Shown one piece after another: positions 6,028 through 62,554 of a stretch of DNA of 64,000 nt; position 1 is the first letter of the stretch, and each line of letters begins with the position of its first letter. The notes beneath the pieces were generated by a model. It was given only the letters and a program-made list of their open reading frames with translations. It did no database searches and was not told where the DNA came from. Source of the DNA: Lingula anatina (taxonomy: Eukaryota > Animalia > Brachiopoda); contig CM120646.1 in NCBI GenBank assembly GCA_051362555.1, forward strand, positions 21,080,001-21,144,000, given 5' to 3'. A program made the position numbers and the translations under genes.

Positions 6028-6204
6028 GGCCCCATTCAGAATAGGGGACTAACTAGTCCGAGGGTCAAATATGGAGACCCACTACAAAGCTTGCCGTCTA
6101 ATACGCTCATAGACACTGAATAGATATTCCGTGGGGAAGTATTTTCAAGTGGGTCGGCCATATTTGACACTCGGACTAGTTAGTCCCCTATTTTAAATGG
6201 GGCC
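6028..6204. mobile_element. Tourist-like (PIF/Harbinger) MITE, 177 bp
   Basis: About 55-bp imperfect TIRs GGCCCCATTCAGAATAGGGGACTAACTAGTCCGAG... / ...CTCGGACTAGTTAGTCCCCTATTTTAAATGGGGCC; TTA on both flanks (TSD). Confidence 0.85.
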
Positions 6205-25981: not shown

Positions 25982-26059
25982 ATTGGGTAAATGGTAATCG
26001 AGTTTACTTTAGGCCATGGTACCATTGGTGTATGCCTAATGACTGGCCGGGGATATAAA
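25982..26059 (+). promoter_or_regulatory. Collagen core promoter: TATA box plus two inverted CCAAT boxes
   Basis: TATAAA 26054-26059; ATTGG 25982-25986 and 26024-26028; 235 nt upstream of the signal-peptide ATG. Confidence 0.7.
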
Positions 26060-26293: not shown

Positions 26294-26357
26294 ATGAGGT
26301 TATTAGACGTACTAGCCTGCACCTTGTTGGTGTCAGCTGTTCTAGCAGAACCTTTAG
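26294..26357 (+). CDS. Exon 1: signal peptide [21 protein letters not shown]
   Basis: ACGATGA start, hydrophobic core, VLA-E cleavage, AG|GTAAGT donor, phase 1 matches next exon. Confidence 0.9.
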
Positions 26358-35400: not shown

Positions 35401-36786
35401 ATTGATGATGCCTATGTCCCCCTTGGTGAATGTTGTTTGGTTTGCCCAGGTACATTTCACCTAACTTTTGCACAATCTTTGTTTTACTGGCAACCGGATG
35501 CAAAGGCTCTCTAAATTTTTTTTAAATCAAAGGTCCGAACTGAATGTAGCTGCTTTGCATTTTCTTGTGGATTACAATTACAGATGATTGCACACGCAAT
35601 CATTCTGAACACAGGAAATAACTCCCTTCTTATGTCAAATTTACAGTTGCCATCATTCTAATTCAAAATGTTTTTAAAACGGTAATCGCACATAGAGAGG
35701 CTTTTGCAACTGGTAGTTTTACTAACAAATTATATTTACTTTATACTTTGGCTTAATATATTTATTTTATCATAATTTGCACATTGATTGCTTTAAGTAA
35801 ATTGGCAAGAAAACTTTGATCTTGGAGTACAATATTGTTTTATTTATACAGTTTGATACTAACAAGCTTTACAATTTTATTCAACATTTTATTCACAAAG
35901 CTGTTAAATGTACTAAATTACATTGCCCGTTTTACATATCAAAGTTTATCACAACATCAGTTCATTCACACCTCAGACAAGTCAATGAGTGAATGATGGA
36001 TGAAAATGAATATTCAAAATTGATTTAAAACTACCAGCTGTGCATCTGTCAAAGGAATGGCATGCTTTTTATTTTGTAATTTTTATTTTGTCAAAATATT
36101 GTTTTTTTTTTTTTTTTGGATTTAGAACACCAACGCACACGTTTTTCAACTTGCACATACGTACCTTTCTTTCACTATTTTCCAATCAAGTCGCATTTCG
36201 ATGACCGAAACGTGACGTCACTATCACGAAACCCGTATGTGCCGTAGAAGTCACATGCATTGCAAGTCTTATGTAACCTTGCCTTTTTTGTGGTAATGCA
36301 CTCAACCATTGAACAGGAAACGAGGCACCATCCATCAACTGAATTCACTCCTTCACCTAGTTGGATATGACGTCACGGACTACTCTTTTATAACGCTTGT
36401 TAAACAACCCATCGTTTATGGTTTTATCATTTGCTTCCGGAAGATAACTACAATAAAACTCGCTTGCTTGAGCGGAATTTCTTTTTTAAATCAAATTAAT
36501 AATTGTATAAAAAACATCATCACAGCATGAAAAAAAAAAACTAACGCGCACATATAATATATATGACCTGAATGGATCGCGGCTTTTACATGCCCCTCCC
36601 ACTAATGGATTATTTTTCGGTTTAAGTTTCAGACAACAAGACTGCTGTGATAAACCAAAAATATTGGTTTATATAGGACAAATGATATTAAATATGAATA
36701 TTAGGTTTTCCTAACTGGGATTTCTTTTATTTTGTTTCAGGCGAGAAAAAGGCTCAAGATGACGCCGTACGTACTCTCTCCCCCCT

Positions 36787-42800: not shown

Positions 42801-45800
42801 CGTTTATTGACCAACTTTTATACCTATTTAAACTATTCAACTATTTAAATGATTTTCTATCTGTATGAGGAATATATATACTTAATAATGGTGGAACAGT
42901 GGCTAACAACCACTTTTTTGGCATAAGCGACATTTAGGTTCTGTCTTAAAATGACAAAAGGACACAGGTTTTAAATTGTGTACAATAAAATCATATTTAT
43001 CAGTTAAATTCAATTTTTGTCCTAATACTTGGATCTGACGTTCACTTTCACGAAATATCGATCAACTCAAAGAAGGCGTTGTTTAACATGTTTTTGAATT
43101 TTTGTCATATTTAGGGTGAACCAGGCAAAGACGGCGAGTCAGGACCAAGAGGACTGCCCGGACCACCAGTAAGTGTTCGATAACTCCGCAGGTACCACAA
43201 ATTAAAAAATCATAATTGTTTGAAATAAGTACTTTCGTCCATCACCCATGGCTTTGATCACTCTGACATGTTATACATGTACTGATAGCGTGTTTTTTGA
43301 CTGACAAATAACATGTTTTATCACTAGGGAGCCAGAGGAGCCGCTGGCATTCCAGGACTTCCAGGCGCCAAAGGACATCGTGGTTTCCCCGGTGCCGCCG
43401 GAGCTAAGGGATCCCAGGGAGCAAGTGGCCCAAGCGGTCCTACAGGATCCCCAGGACAACAAGGAGAACAAGGCCCAGCTGGACCCCGCGGTGCCCCAGG
43501 AGAGAGAGGACGCAATGGACCCCAAGGACCTCAGGTAAGAAGCTGACGCCTTTGAGCACTTGTCGAACTTGGACCCATGCGATATGATTTCTCTGCACAA
43601 ATTCTCCCATTATTCTGATTGTTTTGCTCGTAGCATTGTCGTGTTCAATCCAAAGCCACATAGCGTTTTTATATCCACTTCAAAAAAATTATTTGTTTTT
43701 CTTTTATATTGAACGGGAAAACAAAGTATTTTACTGCGACTGCAGTTTGTTCTACACATTTGCTGTAAAGTATATTACACGATTCCAAATTTAAATAAGT
43801 CTTTTTGGGGTGCGTCGGGCAGTTCAGTTATTTTAAAATCCTTTAACATCTCTTTGTCTAGGGTCTGAGAGGTATTGACGGACAGCCCGGTGCAGCTGGC
43901 CCACCAGGACCTGCCGGACCAACAGGATCACCAGGATTCCCCGGATCTCCAGGTGCTAAGGGCGACCGCGGTGCTGGCGGACCTAAGGGTAACCAAGGTC
44001 TTCAGGGACCACGTGGCATCCGTGGTGCCACCGGACCCCCAGGTGCAAATGGCAACCCCGTAAGTATTCTTCAACCTCATTCCAAAATGTACATCTATCA
44101 TATCATATGACTGTGATATATTTTTATTCTAAAAACAAAGGCTCTTGACATATATTTTAGAAGGCATGTATAGGAGAATATACATAGATAACAAAGCCAC
44201 GTACATTCAAATCTCGTTCAAACAAATGATGCCGCGACCAGCAAATTTTAAGTTACACATCCCAATGCCATTATCTCCATCTACAGGGCAAGGACGGTGC
44301 CCCAGGCAAGGATGGCGAGAAGGGCCCCCAGGGTGAGACCGGAGCCACAGGTTCCCCAGGCTTCCCAGGACCCCAGGGTCCCCCAGGACCAGTAGGCGGC
44401 CCCGGACCTGCTGGGGCCAAGGGAGAGACAGGTGCTCCCGGAACCCCAGGTTACAAGGGAGAGCCAGGACCCCAGGGAGCTGCCGGACCAGCAGGAGAAC
44501 GTGGAGCCCAGGGAATGCCCGGCGAGCCAGGAAAGAGAGTAAGTCTAAGCTACGTTCAGAAGCGCGGCTTGTGCTGTCTCTATCAAAACCCTTACGATTT
44601 CGAGTCACACGTAGGCTATAATTGAGGGTGCGGTTTATGCAGAGTTATGTTGACGTCACCTCTTTTAATTTTTAAAGTTAACATCATTGTCTTCATGCAC
44701 TAGTTTATATGTTTACATATTTGTCAGACGCCCTGTCTATTGTAAGAGTCAAAGTATAATATAATAAGTTCACTTAAAACAGAATTCCCCAACCATGAAT
44801 GATACATTGAAAGATAATCTTCTGAAAATGCTAAAAACCATAATACATAATAACAAGGAATCCTCTACCTCCAGGGTGCACGCGGTACCCCAGGAAACAA
44901 CGGACCCCCAGGACCCCAGGGAGATAGAGGTGGCCCAGGAGACCGCGGCCTCCCCGGACAAAGCGGACCAATGGGCCCCAAGGGTGCTGACGGAGACAAG
45001 GGTGCCACTGGTGAGCCAGGTGCCAAGGGACCCCAGGGAGACACCGGCCGCCCAGGACAACAGGGAGCCATGGGACCAAGAGTGAGTGAAATGTTGGATG
45101 AAATCCAGTGAATATTGTTCGATTTTATGACAGGCGTGCTTTGTACGCAGAAATTTTAATGCCGACACTCTTTGAATATTTGAAGCTATTTCCTGAATCT
45201 TTTGCTCAGTTGGGGTCAAGCTTTAGTAGAAATTTGTTTTGTGCATTCTTCATGGTTGTAATGGGTTAAGCTACATGTATGAAATCCATGGTCATTTGTT
45301 GACCTATACAACCGACTTTCTTCACTTTACTTCAGTTTGTGTGTCAGCCTTCCTGTGTAATTATTTCACGTCCGTACGTTCGACAGCCATGGCTTCCAGA
45401 TATTTATGGTCTATTACCACCTCATTTCTTTATTTCAATATGAAATTGCCTTCGCGCATTGAAACAATATTAACATTGAACATGTTTAACTAAACGATAA
45501 CAATATTGATGTTTACCAATATCATCGCTCATATCATCCTAGGGTATGCCAGGCGCACAGGGTAATGACGGACGCCCAGGACCAATCGGCCCCGCTGGCC
45601 CCCCAGGTCAGGATGGCAAACCCGGTGAGATTGGACCAGCTGGCCAACAGGGCCTGCCCGGACTTCAGGGACCCCCAGGAGAGAAAGGATTCCCCGTAAG
45701 TGGCACCAATATATGACTAAAACGTGTACAAATTCCTCACGCCGTAAGTTACACTAAATTATTACTTAATGGTCTTACTGTAGCCGTTATATCATGAATA

Positions 45801-48800
45801 TGTGAAAAACGTATTTGACCCATTTCCTTTACCACGGTCAGATGGCAATGCTGCATTGTTTTGTCTCTTCCACTAGGGTGAGAATGGAAAGAACGGTGAG
45901 GTTGGACCAGCTGGCCCCACTGGCCCACAAGGTGACCCCGGCAAGGACGGCCAGACCGGACCTATCGGACCTCCAGGTCTACCAGTAAGTACATGCAGAA
46001 CAGGTGCTTGTCGTGTGTAGAAAATAGTGTAATGGGGCTGAAAATGTAATTGCGACTGGAAAGTTACGTTTAATTAACGTATAATTATTTCTATCATTAT
46101 AATAAGTAGTAGTATATACAAAGATGGCTTCTACTCATGAGGTCTGTGTGCATGTACCCGGTACATGCATTTGGGGGGTGGGGGGGGGGGGGGGGGAGTT
46201 GCTTCAAAAGGACACGTTATACCCTTCATCAACTGAACGCTAGCATTCCGAACCTTAACGATCTCCCTGCTTGTCTCCCTCCTTAGGGTGAGGCTGGAGA
46301 TAGAGGAGAGCCCGGCAAGACTGGCGCCCCAGGATTCCAGGGACTCCCAGGTGCCCCAGGTAACCCAGGTGAGACAGGTAAACCAGGTGAACAAGGCGCC
46401 CCAGGAAACACCGGCAACCCAGGAGCTCCAGGTCCAAGAGTAAGTGATAGCATTATTTTGAAATTAGAGTTAAGATTTATAACTTACTATGTTAAATATA
46501 CTGTGCAGAAGAAATAAACCTGTACATAAGTACATTTTCAAAATCCATGATACCTACATAACCCTGAAATAAAACGGAAAGGCGCAAAGTAGTACTTTAT
46601 GTTAGCGTTTAATTGCATATACAAAAATTATTAGGTGCGTTTCAATCAGAAAACTGCAGGATATTAAGATGAGGTTGTATCCAGTTACAATCTGAAATGT
46701 CAGCACAGTGATATCCGTATGCAAGGCACACTGAGCCAAACTCTGAACTTGTTTTTCGTGAATAGGGTGAGCGCGGTATGCCAGGAGAGCGTGGCAATGC
46801 CGGCCCCGCTGGTCCTCCAGGCGCTCGTGGATCTCCAGGTGACCCAGGCTCTGATGGCAAACCAGGTGTGGACGGTAACCCCGGAGCCAAGGGAGAGAAG
46901 GGCGAACCAGGACTGGCGGTAAGTAGGGAGCTTAACCCTGCTGGTTGGACGAAATGATCGGTCCAGAATGCCAAATATCCGATGTGTTAAAAATGCAATA
47001 CAAGAAATTTGGAAGGTGTTACTATGATAACAACAGAAGAACCACTATTGGTAAACCTTTTATTTATGTGTGTTCCTGTGTGTCTGTACATGTTTATGAG
47101 TACCACACATATGAGCTGCAATGATACATCAAAGGTGTGATCTGTGATAATTAAGCGACAAAAATGTAGACTTTTCAAAAAATAAATAAATAAATAAATA
47201 AATAAAAACCCGAAATTTTATCGAAATGTACACCCTATCTTGCAGGGACTTCCAGGAGAAACCGGACCAACAGGACCCGCCGGCCCCAAGGGAGCTGACG
47301 GCGCCCAGGGACAGCCCGGACTCCCAGGAGAGGCCGGCAAGGATGGAGAGAGGGTAAGACGCAGAGGTGCCACTGGCAACCAACACACGCACGGGTAGCT
47401 TTATCATTTTAAAGCTGTGGAAAAGCACCTGTGTTTGGCGGCGGTCAAAGATATGCACTGTGTGCGAATGGATTCTCCAGGAGAGCAATGAAGTGGGGAC
47501 GACAGGCCTGGAAGACGAATAATTAATGTCAATATAAAATTATATCTGAAGTTAAATTAACTTTGTCTCAATCTGAGCGTAATATTGATATATACAGCAA
47601 AAAATATCAGGGGAAAATAGAAAAACAGAGAAAGTCGAAAATATTCATTATTTAACTGAAAGCAAAAGGTTAACACATTGTTTCCGTGTGTTCTATATGT
47701 ATCTCTACGTCATCTGTCATGTTATGTGTCATGTGTAGGGTTTGCCAGGTGCCCAGGGTCTCATGGGTAACCAGGGACCAGCTGGACAAAAGGGAGACGC
47801 AGGTGATCCAGGCCCAGCAGGTGAAGTTGGTGCCCCAGGACTGCAGGGAGAGCGAGGTCTGGCCGGCCAACCAGGCCAGCAGGGTTTCCCAGGGCCACCG
47901 GTGAGTGCCTGCGCACTTCAGTAACCCACAATTTGCACAAATATTTCACCTGCACTTTTCTTTTTTTATTGGCCCCGTCTTTAGGGAGAACCGGGCCCAC
48001 AGGGTCTCGCCGGCCCAGCTGGTGCTCCAGGCCCAAGAGGCGAGAACGGTAGTCCTGGACCAGCCGGTCAAGATGGTCGCCCCGGTAAAAATGGCGATCG
48101 AGGTCAGCAAGGATTCCCAGGGCAGCAAGGTCTTCCCGGACCGCCGGTAACCAAAAAGCCATGTGTCTTGTCTGTTTGCAGCTTGCCTTAGCTTGCGCCA
48201 GGGCGTCTATGTGACGTCATCCTGTAGATGTTACGTCATGTTGTATTTTGACGTCACATCAAGCGATGTGAGAGCCAGTTCCCGAATCTGTCAACATCGC
48301 TTCTGTGTCTTTGTTTAGTCTGTTCTTTGCTAAATCATGGCAATCTCTTTCAGATCCCAACAGCTAATCCAATGACAAACTTCTGGCGGCATGCTTTCAA
48401 TCAATCAAATGCATTTAACTTTTTTCTTGTGTCTGTCTTTGGAACGACCAGCATCACTGTTAAGTGGTAGCTGCAGTAGATTATGAAAAATTGACTGATG
48501 GAATAATAATTAGTAGTAGTTGCAGTGTTTTGTGCACTTTGGTATCGGTAATAGCCTTTCTAGTGAGTGTGATTAATATGAAATAGAAATCGCTACTAAA
48601 CTTCTCCTGTCATTATGTTATGCAAGCAGCCATCTTTTGCTATACATAATTGAAAAATATAATTCGCAGATTAGACCAAATAATTGGTGTATTTTGCCTT
48701 CAAGGCTGATTTATGCTAGACAGCCTCTACTGTCTGTAGTGTGTACGCGGCTTAGAGTAAGTCCTTGCTTAGAGTTAGTCTCGGCTTACGAGTTAGTCCT

Positions 48801-51800
48801 TGCTTAGAGTTAGTCTCTTGCTTGTATACACAGCAGTAGACATTTGTTCATCCTTCGCCTTTTACACAATCGTACATACCTCATTGGCAACTCATTGGAT
48901 CAATGCAGAATAATATCAGAGAAAAAAAACATTGTACAATCTGCTGAGTCAGAGGTATTTGTTTCACAAGTATTAGCGAGTACCACTGTACCTGAAACAC
49001 CACACCAAGACAAAACAGCACAAACGCTTCGTTTTTTTATGAAGGATGAACAACTTTATCCGCACCATGCACCACCCATCAGAAATGATATACTTGTTAA
49101 CGCCGTGGTTTTAACATCGTAGGGTCCAGCTGGTCCACAGGGTCAGCGTGGTGAACAAGGTTCTCAGGGACTGAAGGGTGAACAGGGACAACAGGGTGAC
49201 CGCGGAGAGCAAGGCCCAGCAGGTGCCCCAGTAAGTTGCAGTGTTTTCACTTTCATTCTCTATTGATACTTTCACTTTCAATCTCTATTGATACTTTCAC
49301 TTTCAATCTCTATTGATCATAGCCACAGTACGTGACAATACTGTATGAAGTATCCGAAATGGATAATCGAAATATCGAACCTTTAGGGGCGGATATGTAA
49401 CTGATGATTGAAGATTGGAAATAAATGCAATAATTCGTTTTAAAAATCTTATTTAGCGTGATGATATATCGACCCGTTTGGCTGTTTGCGAACACTCCAG
49501 TGTTCGCAGTTTTCCTCAGAATTCTCATGATTTTGATGTTTGGGTTACCAATCAAGCTGCTCATATTTTTACAATATTTACTAGGAACTTAACAAAATTA
49601 ACTTACACGTCCTAAATTCAGATCTGTTTCAAGCCAAGCAGTAATATATAAACGGCTGGTGAACCAAACTATTCTCTAATTCACAGGGAAAGGACGGATT
49701 GCCCGGCCGCCCAGGAAGCCGTGGTGACACTGGTGCTCAAGGTGCCGTTGGTTTGCCAGGTGCCCCAGGCCGCCCAGGTGGCCCCGGTGTCCAGGGTGCT
49801 AGCGGACCCCCAGGACCACAGGGCGAGGTCGGCCTGCCAGGAGAGAAGGGAGAGCGCGGTGAAACTGGCCCACAAGGACGTGCTGGAGACCAAGGACCAA
49901 TGGGACCACCAGGCCAGGAAGGTGACAAGGGACCAAAGGGTGACGACGGTGCCCCAGGTGTTGCTGGGCCCCCAGGAGCACAGGGATCTCAGGGAGACAG
50001 AGGCAGCCCAGGTATACCAGGAGGTAGAGGAGAGAGAGGACCACAAGGTGCCCCCGGCCCAGCTGGTGAACGCGGTGCTCAGGGCCAGGCAGGCAAAGAT
50101 GGCTCTCCGGGTAACCAGGGTCTCCCAGGATCTCAGGGACCAGCCGGACCACCAGGAGCAACCGGAAATGAGGTTTGTTTTTCATGTATTATGTGTGTGT
50201 GTGTGTGTGTGTGCGCGTGCATTGTGTTGTTGCACCATAAAATTGGCTTCATGCCGTATTACGTCGAAGACCGATTCATACATGTATTTATCAGACATTA
50301 AATGTCGTTTGGCCTGCACTTTGTTGATTCTTCAGTCATTTGATTCTATGCGATTCTTTTCATAGGGTATGCCAGGAAAGGATGGTCTCCCAGGACCTGC
50401 AGGTCGTCAAGGCGAGAAGGGTCCACCAGGCCCCAGCGGCCCACCAGGCCCAAGCGGTCTCCCAGGACAACAGGTAACGTTGCATTGGAAACAAGATTAA
50501 ACAAAATATTATATCTGATCCAGTGCTGTCCGTTTATTGAATGTAATATTAGGTTAACAGAGTGTATTCATCCATGGTTATTACGGTTTGCATTATTTTA
50601 CGAAATACTTTGCGCTGGCAAACTGTATAAGACTTAGAAACAACTTTATGTTACATGTATGTAACTGCTATGTAATACAGTATATTACAATTTCAACCAC
50701 CTGATGAAATACCACCAATTAAAAAACACGCGTTTAAACCAAAACTGTCAAACTTATTGTTACTGATACTGATTGTTGAGATGGTTTGGTATTTAGGGTA
50801 ATGCAGGTCCTCCAGGTGCCGAAGGCAAGACAGGCGACCGTGGTGCACCGGTAAGACCAACAGGAACGCTACCAGTGTTCCTCTAGCACTGACGCACTGT
50901 GCACCTTTGCTGTTATTATTCCTCACTCAAGCACTTTTTGTTTTTCATGCCCAAGGGGCCGTCTGGCCCATGGGATCCCCAGGGACGACCATGTGGACGA
51001 GGGTGTAGGGTATAAGAGATGCACACGCACTGCACTATTTTCACGATCTTTTTGCACTTTTTTCTGTGTGATATTAGGGTCCACCTGGCCAACAAGGATC
51101 TCAAGGTCCATCAGGAGAAAGGGGTGAACGGGTATGATTGATTGTTTTGTTTGAATGTATGTGTTGCGTCCTACTTGGATAATAGATAACAAGGTGAAAC
51201 TCTGTAAGCTCTGGATGAAAGTCACCTAAGTATTGCAAGCTTTCCTCGGCAACCACGGAATATTAAGTTGCGGTAGAAAGCCTATGGTGCTTTTGCAACT
51301 TATATCTAGAATTTACTAAGTTAAATCTTGTAAAGTACACTGCTTGGATAACGGAACTAACAACAGCCTTCTTGGAAAATGTTTGACTTAAAAACGGGAC
51401 ATCTTTCTACACAAAACCATGCCTTTGGTTTTGTAGTGCAGTTATATCTCATTCATATCTGCATTATTTTCATTTTGAAGAGTGTAGTTGACGGAGAAAA
51501 TCTCATTTCTCGATTCTTTGCTGTCAAAAGTTTCGATGTTTCATATAAGGCACACAGTTAATATTTCTTGTAAAAAATAGGAAGTAGAGAATTTGAAATC
51601 GCATTCATGTCCATATCGGTACAAACTTGGACAAGCTTGTAATTCCTTCGATACAGGACAATATTCAGTTTTAAAGATCATAACGTTTTGAAGATTTAAT
51701 GTACCATGTTGAATGGAGGGTAACACTGTAGGCCCCCCTATTGTCAGTTTAATAACTCATATGGAATACTACACTAAGTATAACGAATCCATCAAATCTT

Positions 51801-54800
51801 TACAAATATGAAGAACTCAAACCGCCAAATGTATCTTTCTAGAGGAATTTTCTTTACTTCCCCATAGTTCTGTTACATTGAATGTGTGCCTTATGTGTAT
51901 TTAAATGACTTGTGTTACTTTCAATACTAATTAGTTAAACTAAAATACTCATACCTTGTATTTTTGTGATACTTAGATTAGCTATTTACTAACATATTAA
52001 CGTAAAACATTCCACCAAAAAAATAAATATTAATTTGAGTATACACATAAAACGTCAACTGTTATCATTATTTAAGACATATTATTTCGCTTGTTTTGAC
52101 CAGAATTAAGTAAAAGAACACATGCACAGTCCGAGATTAGTCTAGAGATACATATTAATTTGAAGATTACACGCACACACACACACATACACACACACAC
52201 ACACATGGATAATTTTCATCATAGCAAGTGACACGTCTTGCCGTCAATAACATCCTACACCTGTACTTGTAGGGTGAGCGTGGTCCAGTCGGTCCATCCG
52301 GGCCTTCAGGTCCTCCAGGAGCAACTGTAAGTATAAACTAGTTCTTTACTATTATATTCTTGACTCTTGTAAATAATTAACTTCGGAAAGTGTGCTGTTT
52401 CGTGTTTGGAAATTTCGTGTTTGTACCAGCTATTTCAAATAAAAGTTTGCCCAGGAATCGTGTTAGTTTCTTACATTACAAAATCCTGTATATGTAAAAA
52501 GTTGGAATGATCTACGAGTCGTGTATGAATACGAATATGGAATAATATTTGTTGGTACGGATAGATAAAATAGATTAATCTAAATACCTCAACATCACCT
52601 TTATGCTTCCAGGGCGCCCAAGGCCTTCAAGGTGTTAAGGGAGATCGTGGAGCCGATGGAAAGAAGGTATAATGATTCTCCCTTGTCCTTAAATTAAATA
52701 AACGGTTAACATAGTATATATCTGCTTTAAAAAAAGTACACCGACGATCACACCAAATCCTATACCGCCAAATTATAATATAGCCCAGATGGCCTGACAA
52801 AATATACGCCAATAAAATGTCAAAATCATAGCTCCAAACCTAACTGTTACTCTCGTTCCCCAGGGTGACAAGGGTTTCACCGGTCTCCCAGGTCTTCAGG
52901 GAAGTCCAGGCCCACAGGGTCCATCAGGAGAGATGGGTCCAGCTGGATCTAACGGAGCACCAGGACCAAGGGTAAGTGCCGGAAGTGCTTGAAGCACTCT
53001 GGGTAAAATTATTTGGTGGGTTTCAGACGGATCTGTTGTTTCGTAAACTCGTTGAACATTCTGATAGAAACTCGTAACTTATCGTGTGTCAAATGTTTGG
53101 TTTTTGAAGCAGGTAAAGCAAGATTTGAAGAAGACTCTGTTTAGGTTAAATAAAAACATAAAAATGATGTCAGATTTTGGTTTACTTTTTCTTTTTAAAG
53201 TGCCTTAGTTTAATAGAGAATGAAGTATTATTCATTTGCATGCAGTACGTTTGGTATCTTAACATAAAAAACGTACCCCAATCAACAGTAATTCAGACCT
53301 GTTTTTCGATTCATTCTTAAATTTGCTTTGTTTACGAGATAATGATAGAGACATATTTATAAACGCAATATTTGTATGATATAATTTTATTTTCTCTTAT
53401 GACAAAGCAATAATAAAACCTTACTTTACAGCAAGACCAACATCAGGAAAAGGATGAATCTCCACAAAGGACCCACGAAGAACAATGCTTGTTTGTTTTA
53501 TATTGATGAAAGATCAAAGGGACGAATTTCCGAAGTTTATTAAAAGCTTCAAGTAAATCAAGTTTAATGTAGAAAATTGTTAAATACTACACATGCAAAA
53601 TGACTTGTTCAAATTGGTTTCAGGACGTTACACGTAGTTCCTTGAGGTGAAATGAAATGATCGATATCTCATCCATAATTTGTGTTTTTCTCAAAGGGTG
53701 AACGCGGTTATCCCGGTAAGATGGGTGCAACGGGACAAATGGGACAACCTGGTCCCCGTGGGCCTACCGTAAGTGACCTCAAGATGGCCTTAATGGCCAA
53801 GGGGTAGCCAGAAGGGCAATGGTTACCACCCATAACAATGACAACTTCAACATTACACACTAAGTTAAGGTACAAAGAAAGGTTGACGGAGACTGCCATT
53901 TCGTTCCAAGACCCACATTTTCTAAATAAATTTAGCCATTGGAATCTGTTTCGTGTACAAAATGGTTCCTAGGTTAGGAAAACTGAGACTCCTCCCTCAA
54001 CCATTCTTTGTGCCATAACGGACACATTATATAAATGTTAAATGTCAGACTTTTCTGTACGTGTACAATTTTTATTGGTAAAAGGGCGAACGAGGAAGTC
54101 CAGGTAGACCAGGCAAAGATGGCTCCCAAGGGCCAATGGGTCCGCCGGGCCCGTCGGTAAGGAAATGGCTTGTAGCGTGAACCCAGGGTAGCTCTAAGTT
54201 GCCGGGAATGGGTGCGCATGCCCGCTGCACGTGATGGTGACTTTACTGTCACGTGTAGCTTTTTTATCTTGCTTTTCCCAAAGCTTGCTATACTTCTTCT
54301 TCTTTCAAATAAAAGGGTGAGCGCGGTCCAGCTGGTCCTCCCGGAAAGGACGGTGCGCAGGGCCCAATGGGTGCCCCAGGAATGAGGGTGAGCGACATCA
54401 CTGCACTCTCGTCTCTACGGGATTTAACTCACCTTTTGTCAAATGAGATTTCATAAACCTCTAGTCACAATGAGAGTTATTGAACTTTTAGTCACAATGA
54501 GATTGAAATAAACTCTAGTCACATTGAGATCTAACGAGTTTCTTGGCACAATGGAATTTAATGAACCTCTCAGCACAATCAGTTTTACCTCACCACTTGT
54601 CTAATAAAATTCAATGAACCTTCTGGCACAATGCGACACTTCTCTTTCGGCACAATGTACTTTTTCCTAATTCAATTCACTTTGCAACTTAAAATGAAGT
54701 ATTTAATTTATCCACTACACCTTAAATGTGTAAAAGATCATATTCACATTAACCTCGAAAATAAAGGCCATAGTTTCTCAAAACGGATAGACAGTATGGA

Positions 54801-57800
54801 CATTTGGAATCAAAGTGGCCAAACTCGACAGCGGCACAGCACCCTTTATTTAACATTCTTATCTTACCTAACACTCGCATTTCTCTCTATCTCTCAGCGG
54901 ATGTGTGAAACCAGGGAAGATGCATTTGCAATTCCCGAAAATGAAGAAAACCGCTTTTTTCTTTAAACAAAGCACTGCACCCTCCTAAGCACCAGCACGT
55001 CGACTGCAGGGGAATAATGACAGCTATGAGAAAATCACACGTGCTTGAAACAATTTGTTGTCTTGTTGTACGTCAGCACTGTGTACTTTTACATGCTGTC
55101 TATTATTACCCTAACGGTTGACACGGTAAGTATTGCAATGGTTCTAAAACTAGCTGCTGGACGTTTTGATAGCAGTACTTTTAGCACCATTCCGGGCACA
55201 TTTGTCACCACTTATCAAAACACGGTTTCGGAAGGGTATGAACTTGTATGTCCTCCACTGACAGGGAAGCTTGAAAGGTGATAGTTTTGGAGAACCATCG
55301 ATTTCCGAGTCTCATTTTGATCCAATCACATCGTCGCATGTTATTCATCACGTGATTCCTTGAGAAAATCATATTGACCAAGCACATCCCTATCAGTGGA
55401 CCGCCTTACAGAGGCAGACCCTATCCAATACGAATTCATGTGTTACACATTACTTAAGTTGCACTTAACACGGTAAATCATCGCCTTGCCCATCTTATCT
55501 TTAACATTTGAAAAGATGCCACTGACAGTCACCGAGAACGGTTCAGACAGACGAGGATATCTCTTAGCTCAAAAGTTTGGCTCCATGGATAGAGATCCCG
55601 CCTCTCTCTTTCCGGGGGTTGTCTGTCACGTCACTTTCCAGTCTCTAAGTTTGGGTCTGATTGAAAAATTACTAAAATCGTGAGCTTGGCGACGATCCGC
55701 ACACATATTCATCACCATGCAGCCATTTTGCTGCGGGGTTACAATGATGACGGTAGCGCACCACACACCTCTTTTAACTTTCAACCACATATTATTTTAT
55801 TGTGCACTATTTGAATTCTTCGTTTATAAAATAGACTTTGTTATTAAAACAGAGTTAAAGATATCACTTTTTTTTGTGAAGTAAGAAGTTGTGTGCCTTG
55901 TATTTTGAAAAAACGTAATTTGCGCTTGGTTTCATCACTATTTCTGTAATCTAATTTAATTTAGGTTATATATTCATTCTTTTACTCCTTAACTTGACAG
56001 TTAAACTGCATCGCCTTGAAAATAAGTTCTCTTAGTAAATATACTTGGAATTGTTTTTCCTTATTTTTCTTTTCGAATATTTCAAAAATAACTCACATTA
56101 TTGATTCCTTGTTCAGGGTCCAAGAGGTATGTCTGGAGATGACGGCAGACCAGTAAGTAGACATTTTGTTGTTCCTGTCATATTTAAATATATTACACAT
56201 ACGAAAGAAGTAGTAGCAATTCTCAAAAAAAAAATTACATTGCTTTCGATGTTTGTGCATTTCAACACATTGGATAAAGCTAGAGATAATCTTATCCTCG
56301 TACATGTGGTACGCGCCAATACTGCAGTTCTGAAGAGAAGTATTTCAATATATTTCCATCAACAGGTAAAACCATGGTACAAAATGTGAACGTGGCGCGA
56401 TGCAGGCGTAAAGTGGATTTTTAAATAAAATTCCTTTTTAGATTCCAATCGTTTACATGCTTAATACATCTCTTTTGTTAATATCTTGTTTAGGGTCCAC
56501 CCGGTCCACCAGGTCCTCCCGTAAGTAATTTTTTTATTAAATAAGTTTTGCTTTGAAAACTGAATGCATAAGTAAGTCACATATGAGTAATCACAGATTT
56601 ATTATTGATTTATAAGCAAATAATGCTACTTAATATTATATATTTTTGACTTTTTCATTTGTTGTTTTCTCTTATTTTTTCAACGTTTAATGTACTTGCA
56701 GATTTGGAATTGTAATTCAAAGTTTTGGTGTTTATATTTTTTTGAAGGAAATTTTTAACAATGCATTTTATTTCAGACAGAAACGCATCCGTTCTTGTAA
56801 CTTTTCATCTTATTTCATCTTTATTTATCTATTTAAATATTTTGATGGGCGTTTTGCCATAATGTTCCTGATTATAATAGTTATCTTGGTGTGAGTCAAT
56901 CCATCATTTAAATGATATTTGATACAGCATTGCTTTATTCATTGATTAAGTCTTTATTTTGGGTAAATATGTTAAAAACTGTACATACTGTTAGCCAAAA
57001 TTTAATTGGTAGAATCCTCCTTTCATAAAAAAATGCGATAAAAACTTGACCTCTGTTAACTGTAAACCATATATGAACACATAGGGACCCCCAGGCTCGG
57101 CTGCCGCCGAAAGACCAATATACCCACCATTTTTCAACAGGCCTAAAGGTCCAGATCCGTACCTTGTAAGTAACTGATTGGTCGGAACTCGGGCAGATTT
57201 TTAGCCAGACATACATGTGGCCAGCGCTGTGTATTGTCTGCGACAAGCTCGCCTGCTACCAGAGCTATATATATGTGACTGACAACGTGTTTGTGGTCTC
57301 CTGCAAACCGGCTATCAAAGATCACCAAGAAAGCTGAAATATGAAGACCGCTTTTAAAAATTGCTGATGGCTGTGGTTTCTGAAATCTGAAGTATTAATT
57401 TCATGTGTTTCTTCACTTTCTCACTTTTTCTGCTAATATTTTGCAAAAAAAAAAAATACTACCTAGATTTTTCGAGGAGCCCCTTGGTGATCTCATCATT
57501 GGTATCCGGATTGATGGGAGTTCCCAGTGTTTGTTTGTTTGTACAGTAAATAAGTTGTTTTGTGTTTCCTCACCACCTCCAGGGATCTCCCGGTCCAGCG
57601 GCCGCCTACACGGCGCCGTTCTTTGCCAGGCCCAAGGGCCCCGACCCTTACCTCGTAAGTACCCCGGCTGAAGGTGAACCAGGCATCCCCGCCTCATGGC
57701 GGCAAAATACGCTTCCATCTTATGCACTTGCAATGACCTATATTTATCTTTATGCGCGCGTTTGGTTTTTCTTTTTTTATTATTTATTTAAAGCCATATT

Positions 57801-60800
57801 TGGCTGCTGCTGCTGCGGTTCAGTTTCAGGGACGAAAACGTGAAGAAATATGGCGTTGTGCGCGTGAAACAAGCCCCCCCCCCCCCCCCCCACCACCACC
57901 AAACACACACACCGTTATATCTTGTTGTCCATATGAGTGACAATAGGGTAAATCCGACTAAATCTAGTGTATTATAAATAACAACTTTATCGACAACTAT
58001 ATGCAGGGTCAGTCGGGATCACCGGCCGCTGTAGACTCAGTGCTATTTTCCGCTCTGGCTCGAAGAGGATCTTCTAGTAAAGGACCTCTAGTGAGTAGTG
58101 ACCGTATGATCACCGTGATTGCGATAAAACAGCATTGAAGATGACGGGCTGTTCACTTCCAATCTAAGTTTGCTTCATACCACAGTCACAGATGTTGATG
58201 TGATTGCAATTTCACTTGGTCTGTTTATGGGCGAGTCACACAATTTTGGTTTCTTTTATGTGTAAAACTGCGCATCATACCAGCGCATTACGGCTCTGCC
58301 TGGCAGCTATGAGCGCTGTTCACTCACTACTGCTTACACTAAGAACCACCGTTTGAATCCGTCACCAAGTACAGTATCGTCAAAAGTTATCGTTGCATCA
58401 AACTCAAACGCGGATTCACCGCGGTTGCAGTGCAATGATAAACCATGGCGATCTTGCAGAATGCACTATTCAGTCCATCAGGAGGAGAGGACACGACGAC
58501 ATTAAGAAGAGCCCCAGGCTTCACAGCCCACATTCACTTGAACCACAAAATGATTTGGCTGCATTCATGATTAATGATTGGCTTATATTTATTTTATTTC
58601 CTCACTCACGTGCTCAGGGTGCACCAGGCGCTGCCTCTAGTAATGATGGATTACTCATGTCTCTTATGGCGCGTCCCGCGTCTGGCGGAAAGGGTCAAGT
58701 CTACCTCGTGAGTAGAGAGGCGGTTTAAACCGCAGTAGGAATCCCCCTTCTGTCTCTCAACATCCCCTCCATATCGATATCAGCACCATTCTCCCCTCCT
58801 TCACTTACTATTGGAAGAAGAGAAAGAGAGCGATAGAACTCTCTGGATTAGACACCGCACCCTACCTACTGACGACCTTTTCCATCATTCCACACAAAGA
58901 TCTAGTAAATCTTGAACTTGCAGCACATAACTGACACGTTGTTGTCCTTTGCACCCGATTCCTTCTGTGCACCAAGCAGTCGTTTTAAACCCCTTATCGT
59001 TATTTCGAGTCATGCACTTTCTGTCAAAACTTACCCCTCAATCGACCAAGGTTCACTGCACCACCTCATATGTCGGTTTGCACCTTACAGCAAAGAGTAA
59101 CCAGTCCAATAGAAAGAGTATTGTTCTCGCACGCCCTCTGACTGGAAAAATTAACACTAGGAATCGCACTTTACTTGCCAAGACCAGAACACCTCACTCT
59201 CACAGTCGGGCAACTGGGAACCACCAATCTCAGAGTTCGGTACATGGTACTTGAAAGCACCAACGGCATACTCTCTGACACTGTAGTAGACGTACCAAAC
59301 CAACACCCACTGAACTAGAAGAGCACTCGTGATTGATGATTTCTTACAAACTTTTACTTAGCAGCACAATATTGCAGCGTTCTCTGTGAACACGGCGCGT
59401 TCGCACAGTCAATTTTGGCATGGCGCACTTCAGTACTTTGATTGACTTACTTGAAATAACCTTACGTTGGGTGAATTTGATTGACCAAAGCTCAGTGTCA
59501 AATAATTCACATTATCAAAATGGCGTTTTAAAGGTTATTTCGAAGTTTTGCACTATTTTCTTTAGCGCGGCGTTGCACACCTTCACCGTTTTACCGTTTA
59601 TATTGCACCTTCATTTACCAGGCCCACCTCACCAGCACCCTAGACCACACACCCCATCTGCACCTCCACTCCTTCACGCCCTGCATGTTTCAGTGTCTTG
59701 TTTTTTTTTTGTTTCTTTGATTATTTATTTGTTTGTGAGTGTAATTTGTTGTTTCTTTCCTTGGGTCTTCAGTCCTCTATTCTGTTGTTGTTTAATCCTA
59801 CCCTGCATGTGTGTATATTGATTAAGTTTTGTTAGTACATCTAGATTTGCATTACCTCTGTTCTACTTTTATAACTTTATTTATTTATTTGCTGTTGTTT
59901 GTTCTGTTTTGTTTTGTTTAGTTTTCGTAGTTGCATGGTTTGTTATACACGTCAGTAGATAGAATTCCCTTCAGTTTTGTTTAAATTCAATTTTTCGCAG
60001 CACTCTTTTAAACGCAAATTCACCGTTTTAACAGAATATTTAACTTGCACTGGCAAATGTTCCTAGTTAACAAATGTTCTATTTGCATTTCATTTGAAAT
60101 ATTGCCTACATGTTATTATTCAAGATTAACACTACTGTCAGTAATTGTAGAATGAAACTGGGATAAGAAATTAAATGCTAAAATGTTCATATCAGGAACA
60201 CTATTTACAATATTTCTGAAACGGAGAACCATTAAAATGTTACAATTTTTACAGATCATTATAATGTTGTAATTAATGGTAGTCCGTGAAACACCTTGCT
60301 TAATTATAATAATTTATGATAGTCCATGAAACACCTTGCTTAATTATAATAATTTATGAATTTTTCCCATCCGTAGAATGATGCTCCAGGAAAATTCTCA
60401 GGAGAGGTAAGTCGGAGTTCTGAAATCTGACCGCCTTTTAAATTGTAATCCTACAACATAATGTCCAACTAGCATCTGAAAGCGGCGTTAAAATGTTTTG
60501 GTTAATATTTAAGAAAGGAAAAAGAAGTAAATTAGGAAACAATATTTGGTCGAAGCGGCCATGGTCTAAAACAGTGCCTTAAAAGAAGTGACAACGCAAT
60601 ATTGGAATTGTCAAAAAGGTCCTAGATAATATCATGATATAGTTAACACACTGGTACGATCCTGGTTTGCTTCTTGCAGGAGAACGCTTTTGAGAGCCTC
60701 CAGTACCTCCAACAGGCCATCAACAAGATGAGGAAGCCAGACGGCACCAAGGAGAACCCCGCCAGAACCTGCAGAGATCTCGCTGCTGCCAACGACAAAC

Positions 60801-62554
60801 TGGAGAGCGGTAAGTGGAGCCAAGATCTCTATCAAAAGTTCTGATTTAAGTTGTACAGATATTTTTTTTACTTTAATTCGACGTCAAATTAAAGATGAAA
60901 GTTTGAAACCATCGTGATAGGATGGGTCCTTGAGTTGGGAAGTGGAAGGTTTTGGAAACGTAAGCAAAGAATAGAAAATAGTCGTCAACGGCAATGCACG
61001 ATGTCCTTATAAATGTATTGAATTGAACATACCCATTTATGTGTTGTAATTCCATTGCAGGCAAATACTGGGTGAACCCAGAAGGCGGCATCAGCTCTAG
61101 CCCCATTGAAGTATATTGTGACATGAAGACACGCGAGACCTGCATTTTCCCCAAGAGAGATGCAGTAAGCAGTTCAAAACTTTCCAGATTATTTTCCCTG
61201 GATTTTAGTATTTAATCTGTTCTATTAGTATTCGTAAACAACGTAATACGCCAAGAGCAAACGTAAATTGTTCAGCAGGATACTTTCGATTTTCAAGAGT
61301 ATTGCACTTAAAAGATTAAATGTTTTCTCTTGCAATGAAACTGACATGAGTTGAGATATATTGATTATTATAATTATTATTACAGTTTGAGAAGAAGGAA
61401 TGGATGACCGAAGAAGTCGACGAACACATTTGGTTTGGAGAGAACGTTGATGGTGGAGATAAAGTAAGCTTTTTGGTTTCACAGAGAAACTTCTGTTTAA
61501 TGAACCTCGTTTTCCTTACAATTTATCGTCACCCAGTCAGTATGCCAAAATCTAGAAAAGCGTCAGATACCAAGTTGATGCTTTAGGTCTATTAAACACA
61601 AATCACACCATGTTCTTTTTTATCCCGTTAAACAGCCACAGCACTACAAATGTCTGTAACCCCCACCCCCAACCCGAAAACAAAAATCCACAACATCAGT
61701 GTCATCTAATCCGCCACCTGTTTTTCTTTCCAGTTCTACTACCAAACCGACAAGATCCAGATCAACTTCCTGCAGATTCTCAGCCACGCGGCCAGACAGA
61801 CCATTACCTACCATTGCCGTAACTCTGTTGGTTATGCTGATGGAGAGGCCGCTCTCGATAAGGCCGTGAAGCTGTTCACTTACAACGAGCTTGAGCTGGA
61901 GGCAGACTCCGGCCCCAAGACAAGATACAACGTCAACGAGGACAGTTGCGGCGTAAGTACCAGTTTCTGTGATCCGAGTTCCTGGTCATTGCTCTGATGT
62001 ATTTTGGTGTAAAAATGGAAGGGTTGTGATTTTAATGGCTGAGGTCTGCCTCTCTTCCTCTTCACACCTGTGCGATTGTAGATCTGTTCTTTTAATTTTA
62101 AGGTAAAAAAAATTTTTTTCTTGGGACGAGACACTACCTGGGGTTCAAATTATGCATTCACACGAAGTTATCAACCGTTTGTATAAAAGACAAGACCATG
62201 TAACCACTAGATTTCCTGTCCAACAAAGTTTTTTAATATCGGATGTTTCCTCCCAGAAAACTTAAAAATTTTATACTTATCAAACATGGGATAAGTTATA
62301 GTGTAACCTGCATTCAAGAAAATTAAATGAACAAAATTATACGCTCCGTTTTTTTCAATGGGATCACTGGTATTTATATGTATCATAATCTTTTTAATTC
62401 CTCTTTCCAGGAGAACACTGGCAAATGGGGCAAGACTGTCATCGCCATCGACACAGAGAAACCCCAGCGGCTGCCCATCATGGATATAGCTGTGAGGGAC
62501 GTCGGCAGAGGAAAGGCTTTCGGGCTGGAAATCGGACAAGTCTGCTTCTCATAA
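26294..62554 (+). CDS. ColA: Clade A fibrillar procollagen alpha chain (multi-exon gene span; VWC N-propeptide, 337-triplet major helix, COLFI), 1445-1451 aa depending on isoform
   Basis: All exons GT-AG and frame-compatible; signal peptide + 10-Cys VWC + minor helix + GPMGPR helix start + KGHR + [22 protein letters not shown] motifs; most helix exon sizes are sums of 45/54/99/108 nt matching COL1A1-type boundaries. Confidence 0.97.
35258..35449 (+). CDS. VWC domain exon (192 nt, phase 1-1)
   Basis: SCVFDGRLY...[13 protein letters not shown]...GECCLVCP, 10 Cys; TTTCCAG acceptor, CAG|GTAC donor. Confidence 0.95.
36741..36766 (+). CDS. N-propeptide linker microexon GEKKAQDDA
   Basis: Strong TTTCAG acceptor, GTACGT donor; converts phase 1 to 0 as required. 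Confidence 0.75.
37000..37041 (+). CDS. N-propeptide exon [14 protein letters not shown]
   Basis: TTTGCAG / GAG|GTAGGC, 42 nt, phase 0. Confidence 0.7.
37259..37312 (+). CDS. Minor triple helix exon ([18 protein letters not shown])
   Basis: 54 nt, Gly-X-Y, canonical splice sites. Confidence 0.92.
37520..37588 (+). CDS. Minor triple helix end (GDP...GPP GST SE)
   Basis: 69 nt, Gly-X-Y, canonical splice sites. Confidence 0.92.
39004..39102 (+). CDS. N-telopeptide exon [33 protein letters not shown]
   Basis: 99 nt, cross-link-type FKG lysine, YLQAQ motif preceding the helix, TTTCAG / CAG|GTAAC. Confidence 0.9.
41443..41541 (+). CDS. Major helix first exon (GPM GPR...GPS, 11 triplets)
   Basis: 99 nt, GPMGPR...GFQG start typical of clade A chains. 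Confidence 0.95.
41954..42007 (+). CDS. Cluster 1 exon a ([18 protein letters not shown])
   Basis: 54 nt, AAG acceptor, GTAAGT donor. Confidence 0.9.
42422..42475 (+). CDS. Cluster 1 exon b ([18 protein letters not shown]), duplicate of 1a
   Basis: 54 nt, same phase, same GxP GxR...G[KR]D pattern; TAG/GTAAGT. Confidence 0.88.
43115..43168 (+). CDS. Helix exon (6 triplets)
   Basis: [18 protein letters not shown]. Confidence 0.95.
43328..43534 (+). CDS. Helix exon (23 triplets) with KGHR cross-link site (K87 equivalent)
   Basis: 207 nt, GAK GHR GFP. Confidence 0.95.
43862..44059 (+). CDS. Helix exon (22 triplets)
   Basis: 198 nt uninterrupted Gly-X-Y. Confidence 0.95.
44287..44538 (+). CDS. 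Helix exon (28 triplets)
   Basis: 252 nt, ends GEP GKR. Confidence 0.95.
44875..45081 (+). CDS. Helix exon (23 triplets)
   Basis: 207 nt. Confidence 0.95.
45543..45695 (+). CDS. Helix exon (17 triplets)
   Basis: 153 nt. Confidence 0.95.
45877..45984 (+). CDS. Helix exon (12 triplets)
   Basis: 108 nt. Confidence 0.95.
46287..46439 (+). CDS. Helix exon (17 triplets)
   Basis: 153 nt. Confidence 0.95.
46766..46918 (+). CDS. Helix exon (17 triplets) with GMPGER integrin-type motif
   Basis: 153 nt; GER GMP GER at the position of GFOGER (residue 502) of alpha1(I). Confidence 0.95.
47246..47353 (+). CDS. Helix exon (12 triplets)
   Basis: 108 nt, ends GKD GER. Confidence 0.95.
47739..47900 (+). 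CDS. Cluster 2 exon a (GLP GAQ GLM...GQQ GFP GPP)
   Basis: 162 nt, 18 triplets. Confidence 0.92.
47985..48146 (+). CDS. Cluster 2 exon b (GEP GPQ GLA...GQQ GLP GPP), duplicate of 2a
   Basis: 162 nt, aligns triplet for triplet with 2a, 84-nt intron between. Confidence 0.9.
48750..48824. repeat. 17-18-bp tandem repeat x4 (GCTTAGAGTTAGTCCTT)
   Basis: Direct reading, intronic. Confidence 0.85.
49123..49230 (+). CDS. Helix exon (12 triplets)
   Basis: 108 nt. Confidence 0.95.
49244..49317. repeat. 25-bp tandem repeat x3 (ACTTTCACTTTCAATCTCTATTGAT)
   Basis: Direct reading, intronic. Confidence 0.9.
49687..50172 (+). CDS. Helix exon (54 triplets), contains RGD
   Basis: 486 nt = 54+54+162+108+108; GSRGDT. 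Confidence 0.96.
50366..50473 (+). CDS. Helix exon (12 triplets)
   Basis: 108 nt. Confidence 0.95.
50797..50850 (+). CDS. Cluster 3 exon a ([18 protein letters not shown])
   Basis: 54 nt, matches alpha1(I) GAP GPV GPA GKS GDR GET. Confidence 0.92.
50956..51009 (+). pseudogene. Cluster 3 exon b, degenerate 54-nt copy ([18 protein letters not shown])
   Basis: Exactly 54 nt between AAG and GTATAA; two Gly positions read GAT and TGT (one substitution from GGT); no stop. Confidence 0.7.
51078..51131 (+). CDS. Cluster 3 exon c ([18 protein letters not shown])
   Basis: 54 nt, TAG/GTATGA. Confidence 0.88.
52273..52326 (+). CDS. Helix exon (6 triplets)
   Basis: [18 protein letters not shown]. Confidence 0.93.
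52613..52666 (+). CDS. Helix exon (6 triplets)
   Basis: [18 protein letters not shown]. Confidence 0.93.
52864..52971 (+). CDS. Helix exon (12 triplets) with K930-equivalent (GDK GFT)
   Basis: 108 nt, ends GPR. Confidence 0.95.
53697..53768 (+). CDS. Cluster 4 exon a ([24 protein letters not shown])
   Basis: 72 nt, AAAG/GTAAGT. Confidence 0.88.
54085..54156 (+). CDS. Cluster 4 exon b ([24 protein letters not shown])
   Basis: 72 nt, AAAG/GTAAGG. Confidence 0.88.
54316..54387 (+). CDS. Cluster 4 exon c ([24 protein letters not shown])
   Basis: 72 nt, AAAG/GTGAGC. Confidence 0.9.
54435..54660 (+). repeat. Degenerate ~27-bp tandem repeat with CACAATG core
   Basis: AACCTCTAGTCACAATGAGAGTTATTG-like units, about 7 copies. 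Confidence 0.75.
56117..56152 (+). CDS. Helix exon ([12 protein letters not shown])
   Basis: 36 nt; 72+36 = canonical 108. Confidence 0.92.
56494..56520 (+). CDS. Helix microexon (GPP)3
   Basis: 27 nt, TTTAG/GTAAGT. Confidence 0.92.
57085..57165 (+). CDS. Cluster 5 C-telopeptide exon a ([27 protein letters not shown])
   Basis: 81 nt, 2 triplets + telopeptide with KG, phase 0-0. Confidence 0.9.
57583..57654 (+). CDS. Cluster 5 C-telopeptide exon b ([24 protein letters not shown])
   Basis: 72 nt, paralog of 5a. Confidence 0.9.
58007..58090 (+). CDS. Cluster 5 C-telopeptide exon c ([28 protein letters not shown])
   Basis: 84 nt, TGCAG/GTGAGT, 2 triplets + KG. Confidence 0.8.
58618..58707 (+). 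CDS. Cluster 5 C-telopeptide exon d ([30 protein letters not shown])
   Basis: 90 nt, CTCAG/GTGAGT, 2 triplets + KG...YL. Confidence 0.87.
60280..60359. repeat. 40-bp tandem duplication
   Basis: TAGTCCRTGAAACACCTTGCTTAATTATAATAATTTATGA x2. Confidence 0.9.
60377..60406 (+). CDS. C-propeptide start [10 protein letters not shown] (probable BMP1/tolloid site N|D)
   Basis: 30 nt, phase 0; Asp at P1'. Confidence 0.85.
60680..60809 (+). CDS. COLFI exon (coiled coil + [15 protein letters not shown])
   Basis: 130 nt, conserved motif. Confidence 0.96.
61061..61164 (+). CDS. COLFI exon ([10 protein letters not shown]...[14 protein letters not shown])
   Basis: 104 nt, conserved motif. Confidence 0.96.
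61386..61463 (+). CDS. COLFI exon (...[13 protein letters not shown])
   Basis: 78 nt, HxWFGE motif. Confidence 0.95.
61734..61952 (+). CDS. COLFI exon ([17 protein letters not shown]...TYHCRNSV...EDSCG)
   Basis: 219 nt, conserved motif. Confidence 0.96.
62411..62554 (+). CDS. Last coding exon (...WGKTVI...RLPIMD...[11 protein letters not shown])
   Basis: 144 nt, TAA at 62552-62554. Confidence 0.96.
   Translation, partial: ENTGKWGKTVIAIDTEKPQRLPIMDIAVRDVGRGKAFGLEIGQVCFS

Follow-up and report, generated by a model that had tools for sequence, protein, structure and literature searches.

Fibrillar collagen genes are known to yield more than one chain by splicing, as in the IIA and IIB forms of COL2A1 and the alternative exons 6a and 6b of COL11A1, both of which alter the N-propeptide. 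Telopeptides are varied in vertebrates through separate genes, and mutually exclusive splicing from several exon clusters is familiar from Dscam. Sea urchin fibrillar collagen chains are also spliced alternatively in the N-propeptide, and the main text of a review of the fibrillar collagens describes alternative forms only for N-propeptides (PMC2852846). Outside the fibrillar family, the alpha2(IV) gene let-2 of C. elegans contains exons 9 and 10, which are mutually exclusive and stage-regulated (PMC2119826). The stretch analysed here, 64 kb of the Lingula anatina contig CM120646.1 (hereafter the window, to which all coordinates refer), carries one fibrillar collagen gene on its + strand, the strand of every feature described below. 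We propose that this gene contains four tandem-duplicated C-telopeptide exons, designated a to d, that a and b alternate while c and d are probably used seldom or in certain tissues, and that exon choice would place the cross-linking lysine in different surroundings. We place the probability of this reading at about 0.7.

What the gene has in common with let-2 is exon duplication with mutually exclusive use, such that the alternative collagen chains differ chiefly over a short non-helical segment, and usage that varies, between samples in the Lingula gene and by stage in let-2. The two differ in that let-2 encodes a type IV network collagen with two such exons, affecting an interruption within the helix, whereas the Lingula gene is fibrillar, varies the C-telopeptide lysine through four exons, and contains four helix clusters. 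As with N-propeptide splicing, several chains arise from one fibrillar collagen gene; however, N-propeptide splicing alters a part that is largely removed or lies on the fibril surface, whereas the Lingula gene alters the mature tail and the helix. Dscam shares the use of several clusters with combinatorial output but differs in that the Lingula product is a structural protein, in which docking-selector pairing is not established.

Mutually exclusive or alternative telopeptide or helix exons of fibrillar collagens were not found in the literature by title or abstract, in a search with subscription journals mostly outside its reach, and the excerpts of PMC1950077 and PMC8887668 consulted do not report isoforms for the invertebrate chain. 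Such isoforms may already figure in database gene models of the species. In type IV collagen, mutually exclusive exons are known, but a fibrillar C-telopeptide switch, none having been found in the literature, is apparently a new form.

Four C-telopeptide exons and the use of two of them in RNA

The four exons, of 81, 72, 84 and 90 nt, are located between two constant exons: a (57085-57165), b (57583-57654), c (58007-58090) and d (58618-58707). The upstream constant exon (56494-56520, 27 nt) encodes three Gly-Pro-Pro triplets, corresponding to helix 1000-1008, and provides the common donor into the telopeptide cluster. The downstream constant exon (60377-60406, 30 nt) opens with Asn-Asp-Ala-Pro and starts the C-propeptide, with a predicted BMP-1/tolloid cut before the Asp (placed by way of PMC3186203). 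Each of the four is phase 0 at both ends, begins with GG after an AG acceptor, ends at a GTRAG donor, has a length that is a multiple of three and is free of stops. Each encodes two Gly-X-Y triplets followed by a tail with a single Lys, the next residue being Gly. This Lys is found at telopeptide position 15 in a, 12 in b, and 19 in both c and d, within predicted telopeptides of 21, 18, 22 and 24 residues. An initial annotation of the window had described these exons, and its coordinates, splice sites, lengths, frames and lysine positions are all borne out by translation; the value of 16 that it quoted for alpha1(I) is the same in a fetched alpha1(I)-like protein (P0219).

The tails fall into the two subfamilies that had been proposed. 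Those of a and b contain 4-6 Pro and 4 aromatic residues, and that of a in particular is aromatic and Pro-rich; those of c and d contain one Pro, one aromatic residue and a longer Ser/Gly reach, with c aliphatic, Ser-rich and lacking Tyr. Telopeptide scores within the subfamilies are 66 (a/b) and 31 (c/d), each matched by 0 of 1000 shuffles, and cross-family scores are 5-10, matched by 1-4 of 1000. The end of the helix also depends on the exon, with four Gly-Pro-Pro triplets when a is used and three with b, c or d. When both strands of the window are searched for an acceptor, Gly-x-x-Gly, Lys-Gly within the last ten residues and a donor, there are four matches, all of which are these exons; shuffled window DNA gives 0 matches in 10.3 Mb. 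The four-exon pattern is not chance.

Four of the nine RNA runs carrying the species label were mapped to 50300-61200, with 3 reads in X1, 705 in X4, 891 in X7 and 861 in X9. Between 6 and 30% of each run was read, and 15 of 20 splice joints are listed, the weakest among these having 14 reads. The joint from 56520 into a is found in 37, 48 and 39 reads of X4, X7 and X9, and that from 56520 into b in 0, 23 and 22. On the exit side, 62, 52 and 41 reads join a to 60377, and 1, 15 and 15 join b to 60377. Both exons have entry and exit joints, and a and b are alternatives. They are apparently spliced in one at a time, in a ratio that depends on the sample: X4 uses almost only a, and X7 and X9 use a and b at ~2:1 (Fisher's test on entry joints, p 3e-5 and 7e-6 for X4 against X7 and X9; p 0.71 for X7 against X9). 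Exon a is the major form and b a minor, sample-dependent one. The three runs come from different studies and are unequally like the window, and tissue, stage and population effects are inseparable in this ratio. Among the read differences listed (40 of 258), the six inside a and b are all synonymous, and none falls in c or d.

These data divide two of the claims of the initial annotation. The interchangeable use of the telopeptides is supported for a and b, the two of the four exons seen in use. It would have been refuted had junction reads linked no more than one of the four to 56520 or to 60377; instead, a and b are both linked to each. The proposal that all four join 60377 is confirmed by reads for a and b and, for c and d, is a prediction from phase and position.

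Two other explanations for the reads can be weighed at this point. An error in the assembly, alleles collapsed into one or stray reads of a paralogue almost certainly do not account for them. The RNA of X7 and X9 is mostly 95-99% like the window, with junction anchors of only 27-31 nt, which leaves some room for such an error; however, the copies are too diverged for alleles, their introns are unique, and within the same runs the two constant exons are joined to a as well as to b. It is also very unlikely that several of the exons enter one transcript as cassettes and give tandem telopeptides. Their lengths, in multiples of three and stop-free, would keep such joins in frame and let them escape nonsense-mediated decay (NMD), and 5 of the 20 joints are unlisted. 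Against this, no a-to-b or other member-to-member joint is present among the 15 listed, the exit reads of b do not exceed its entry reads (15 vs 23 and 15 vs 22), those of a match or exceed its entry reads, and the loose ends past a all go to 60377 (14 reads in X4, with 0.99 agreement with the start of that exon).

Telopeptide choice and the cross-linking lysine

Telopeptides carry the lysines that lock fibrils, and the Lys of the C-telopeptide pairs with helical K87 through lysyl oxidase. In the Lingula gene, K87 is encoded by a constant helix exon (43328-43534) in a Lys-Gly-His context, at a best register of 73 (rank 1 of 316), and K930 by a second constant exon (52864-52971) in a Lys-Gly-Phe context (rank 1 of 327). 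Both positions are cross-link sites (PMC7988497), and K87 is the expected partner of the C-telopeptide lysine. As K87 is in a constant exon and in register, the telopeptide switch would change the donor side only.

If the exons act as proposed, the propeptide would be cut before the Asp of the constant exon and the chosen segment would stay as the mature C-telopeptide. Its Lys would be oxidised by lysyl oxidase and would condense with K87 of a staggered neighbour. With a or b, the Lys would be 12-15 residues out, in a stiff Pro/aromatic context containing the presumably ancestral RPKGPDP motif. With c or d, it would be 19 residues out on a Pro-poor Ser/Gly linker, and hence would be presented differently. 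This difference in presentation could alter the yield or the chemistry of the cross-links in the fibril. The C-propeptide is the same whichever exon is chosen, which could also allow chains with unlike tails to share one trimer. Taken together, the sequence makes it plausible that the switch tunes cross-link geometry.

It had also been suggested that the rate of propeptide cleavage varies with the exon, and in particular that it is affected by the missing Tyr of c. This suggestion now appears weak. The putative BMP-1/tolloid site has Asp at P1' and Pro at P3', both in the 60377 exon, which also supplies P1; P2 is Leu in all four telopeptide exons, and near the cut only P3-P4 vary among them. 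Two related loci with a single telopeptide exon lack Tyr at P3, which is Ala in L002 and Leu in L007. The reported determinants for BMP-1 and the astacins are on the prime side, with Asp at P1' and Pro at P2'/P3' favoured in astacins (PMC3186203).

Comparison of collagen types confounds the effects of telopeptide, helix and propeptide. Here, the tail is swapped while the rest of the chain stays the same, and no fewer than two of the tails are in use, which makes the gene a natural controlled experiment on telopeptide sequence and Lys spacing. It may also offer a design hint for engineered collagens, and it adds splicing to gene duplication as a route to fibrillar collagen diversity.

Alternatives and the control of exon choice

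Several observations weigh against a four-exon switch that tunes cross-linking. No joint into or out of c or d is present among the 15 listed, and there is no depth excess at either exon (2.1, 1.0 and 4.0 in the bin of c, as compared to 6.6, 0.9 and 4.7 in a purely intronic bin). If the joints are ranked by read count, each of the five unlisted ones has at most 14 reads, under ~8% of entry reads, and an a-to-b joint could be among them. A docking-site search of the clusters established no mechanism of exclusion, and an orthologous four-exon cluster was not found in the relatives searched. With respect to function, natural single telopeptides already cover the range of spacings, with Lys at 12 in L007 and 17 in L002, and at 16-24 residues after the last Gly-Pro-Pro in most of the fetched proteins that have it. 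Such spacing may be tolerated without effect, and the proposed tuning is inferred from sequence.

The switch could then be real but serve another purpose: it may act on nucleation of the triple helix at its C-terminal end, on turnover by proteases or on a binding site, or it may be nearly neutral and co-regulated with the helix cassettes. Consistent with this, the last two triplets belong to the same exon and are not equally rich in Pro. In addition, Lys-Gly is present in all four exons and K87 is constant, such that every form can cross-link, and relatives tolerate wide Lys spacing. However, it is mainly around the Lys of the telopeptide that the exons have diverged, and the two types of sequence have long been retained. 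Moreover, b (~30% in X7 and X9) and the second exon of helix cluster 4 (4/85 and 10/77 exit reads) are not used in step. We regard another purpose as possible but doubtful, and favour the tuning of cross-links.

The observations on c and d bear on a further alternative, a two-way module in which a and b do alternate, with c and d as relics that stay silent or as noise in splicing. The three expressing runs, with neither listed joints nor depth for c and d, are in line with this, and the gene does hold one decayed duplicate exon. This is a 54-nt helix copy (50956-51009) with AG/GT ends and an open frame, in which 4/6 Gly are kept and Cys and Trp are present. In contrast, c and d keep the acceptor, donor, frame, both Gly and the Lys-Gly despite codon divergence. 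Among residues that are the same, codons differ at 8/10 between c and d and at 13/18 between a and b, and the intron flanks cannot be aligned (0/12 flank comparisons among the exons beat shuffles, with the score reached by 27 to 181 of 200). An unused exon should by now have lost its frame or splice sites, and thus exons that are intact after so much divergence are probably not unused. The reads are also a small part of each run, from tissues not specified. By these signs c and d are old and constrained at the protein level, unlike the decayed copy. A two-way module is therefore improbable to us, and c and d are probably real but rare or tissue-restricted members of the switch.

Exclusion itself could be enforced in several ways. 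The introns between the telopeptide exons are 417, 352 and 527 nt, all are GT-AG with GTRAG donors, and the exon lengths are multiples of three, features that do not fit steric, U2/U12 or NMD-enforced exclusion. Because neither the spacing nor the frame nor the type of splice site imposes it, exclusion must be active, through splicing factors or RNA pairing. A weak candidate docking site is present downstream of d (58916-58959), where 23 of 300 shuffles are as good, which is not significant. It can pair with 57277-57306 (after a), 57828-57842 (after b) and 58477-58498 (after c). Its best part, 58928-58959, is reached by 16/150, 23/300 and 13/150 shuffles at three search-window sizes. The site was rejected as a finding: it was the one good result in 10 cluster/side tests (1 of 60 shuffles), and gave 23 of 300 on repeat.

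Gene architecture, relatives and helix clusters

The likely first coding exon (26294-26357), inferred from sequence, is signal-peptide-like with a phase 1 donor. ATTGG (inverted CCAAT) elements and a TATA-like GATATAAA are found at 25978-26050, ~250 nt upstream of the likely start codon; we take these to resemble the promoters of vertebrate fibrillar collagens. The N-propeptide contains a VWC exon (35258-35449; PF00093 at 35260-35448, E 5.9e-12) and a minor helix in short Gly-X-Y exons at 37268 and 37520. A single N-telopeptide exon with one Lys-Gly is located at 39004-39102, and no second one was found between 37600 and 41440. The major helix is encoded by 28 pure Gly-X-Y exons that span 41443 to 56520; the constant 36-nt exon at 56117-56152 is assigned to helix 988-999 by register and reads. 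A 40-nt tandem duplication (60270-60349) immediately precedes the 60377 exon. Five further C-propeptide exons follow in open frame (60680-60809, 61061-61164, 61386-61463, 61734-61952 and 62411-62554), and the six exons from 60377 to 62554 read through to give 234 residues with 6 Cys. COLFI (PF01410) is matched in 4/4 C-propeptide exon pieces scanned. As compared to human chains, Cys 5 and 8 are present and Cys 2 and 3 are absent, the latter being a state reported for some invertebrate chains (PMC2852846).

The VWC domain, the minor helix, an uninterrupted helix of ~338 triplets, COLFI and K87/K930 are all present, features that the gene shares with the clade A genes COL1A1 and COL2A1 (PMC2852846). 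The C-propeptide is 41-45% identical to vertebrate clade A chains. In quick trees, it is on a long branch among non-vertebrate chains, nearest to invertebrate chains (48-50% identity), and is outside the clade B rows with a support of 87 only. The gene can be described as a clade-A-type fibrillar collagen, by its features and with a long branch as its position in the tree.

An alignment-based scan gave 70 loci, of which the two noted above, L002 and L007 on metagenome contigs, were examined in detail. In both, the telopeptide is on its own phase-0 exon and contains the PKGPDP motif, but each locus has one copy where the Lingula gene has four. A single stand-alone exon in these relatives suggests that this exon existed as a unit before it was multiplied, and its phase would explain why it can be duplicated. 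Exons a and b appear to keep the older telopeptide motif; among fetched proteins, KGPDP also occurs in bird COL2A1 and in lamprey chains. The telopeptide of a fish clade-A locus (L032) is continuous with the C-propeptide in one reading stretch, in contrast to the separate, fourfold exon of the Lingula gene. Tails resembling c and d by eye, with an aliphatic stretch, a Ser/Gly linker and a Lys, end other chains (e.g., L005 and P0092). L007 contains duplicated helix exons of its own: three 108-nt copies, all best at helix 838 (3444-4664), and two of 72 nt (5857-6068) directly ahead of the final helix exon, the same place as cluster 4 of the Lingula gene. These likely represent mutually exclusive clusters. 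No close orthologue was found in protein searches (0/32 candidates; best 54%, and best 48% to the C-propeptide), a metagenome scan with a window exon gave no match, and no near-identical C-propeptide pair with a different telopeptide type was present among 32 transcript-like loci. Placement of single exons on PDB collagens was uninformative owing to repeats, and broken predicted proteins were likewise set aside.

The Gly-X-Y exons include four helix clusters, numbered with the first triplet position counted as in alpha1(I). If all Gly-X-Y exons were used, the helix would have 1149 residues (minus a 3-residue offset); with one exon per cluster it has exactly 1014. This choice places Lys at 87, 174, 918 and 930, the positions named for alpha1(I) (PMC7988497). 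When compared with full-length relatives (at most 13) whose numbering was anchored on K87/K930, 13 of the 28 exons rank first at the register expected for them. These include the constant exons at 41443, 43328, 47246, 49687 and 52864, and with them the flanks of clusters 1 and 2. Short exons are often ranked poorly, with the first exon of cluster 4 (4a) at 111 of 331.

Cluster 1 is predicted from register and contains two 54-nt exons (41954-42007 and 42422-42475) for helix 37-54. Both fit position 37 over 55, and exon 43115 shows the opposite (4 relatives). Cluster 2, predicted from length and register, contains two 162-nt exons (47739-47900 and 47985-48146) for helix 586-639. Cluster 3 contains 54-nt exons at 50797-50850 and 51078-51131 for helix 874-891, with the decayed copy between them; reads jump from 50473 to 51078 (61, 70 and 70 in X4, X7 and X9), skipping 50797. 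A pairing of 51078 with 52273 was ruled out, as reads join the two consecutively, and this leaves the helix count unaffected. Cluster 4 contains three 72-nt exons (4a, 53697-53768; 4b, 54085-54156; 4c, 54316-54387) for helix 964-987. The first is the major form, the second has 0, 4 and 10 exit reads in the three runs, and the third is absent among the joints listed. By reads, the exons in use are 3b (the second of cluster 3), 4a, 4b, a and b only, and alternative use of clusters 3 and 4 is supported.

The upper bound of isoforms is 2x2x2x3x4 = 96 chains. In the boldest form of the proposal, all four tails would be made, and the tail chosen in a tissue would determine how its fibrils are cross-linked chemically and how stiff they are. 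Five switches would give up to 96 fixed-length chains, with tails even mixed within a trimer, and splicing would take the role of the vertebrate gene family. We hold this extension to be tentative and rather unlikely.

Other observations concern individual sites. The introns at 47901-47984 (84 nt) and 51010-51077 (68 nt) are short, and in them the second member is preceded by 61 and 57 nt free of AG, which would leave space for a distant branch point that acts by steric exclusion. At helix 601-603, Gly is kept in both exons of cluster 2 (47739-48146), and 9/24 long related helices are interrupted by one triplet nearby. In X4, the depth over a C-rich stretch of the intron after d (58672-59399) is 4.6-6.6, two- to threefold the intronic level, which may reflect a retained intron, slow splicing or a regulatory stretch. 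Adjacent amino-acid-changing differences are present at 53728 and 53731 of exon 4a in nearly all X7 and X9 reads but not in X4. Finally, exon 4c is followed by a 27-nt tandem repeat of ~6 copies (54442-54632).

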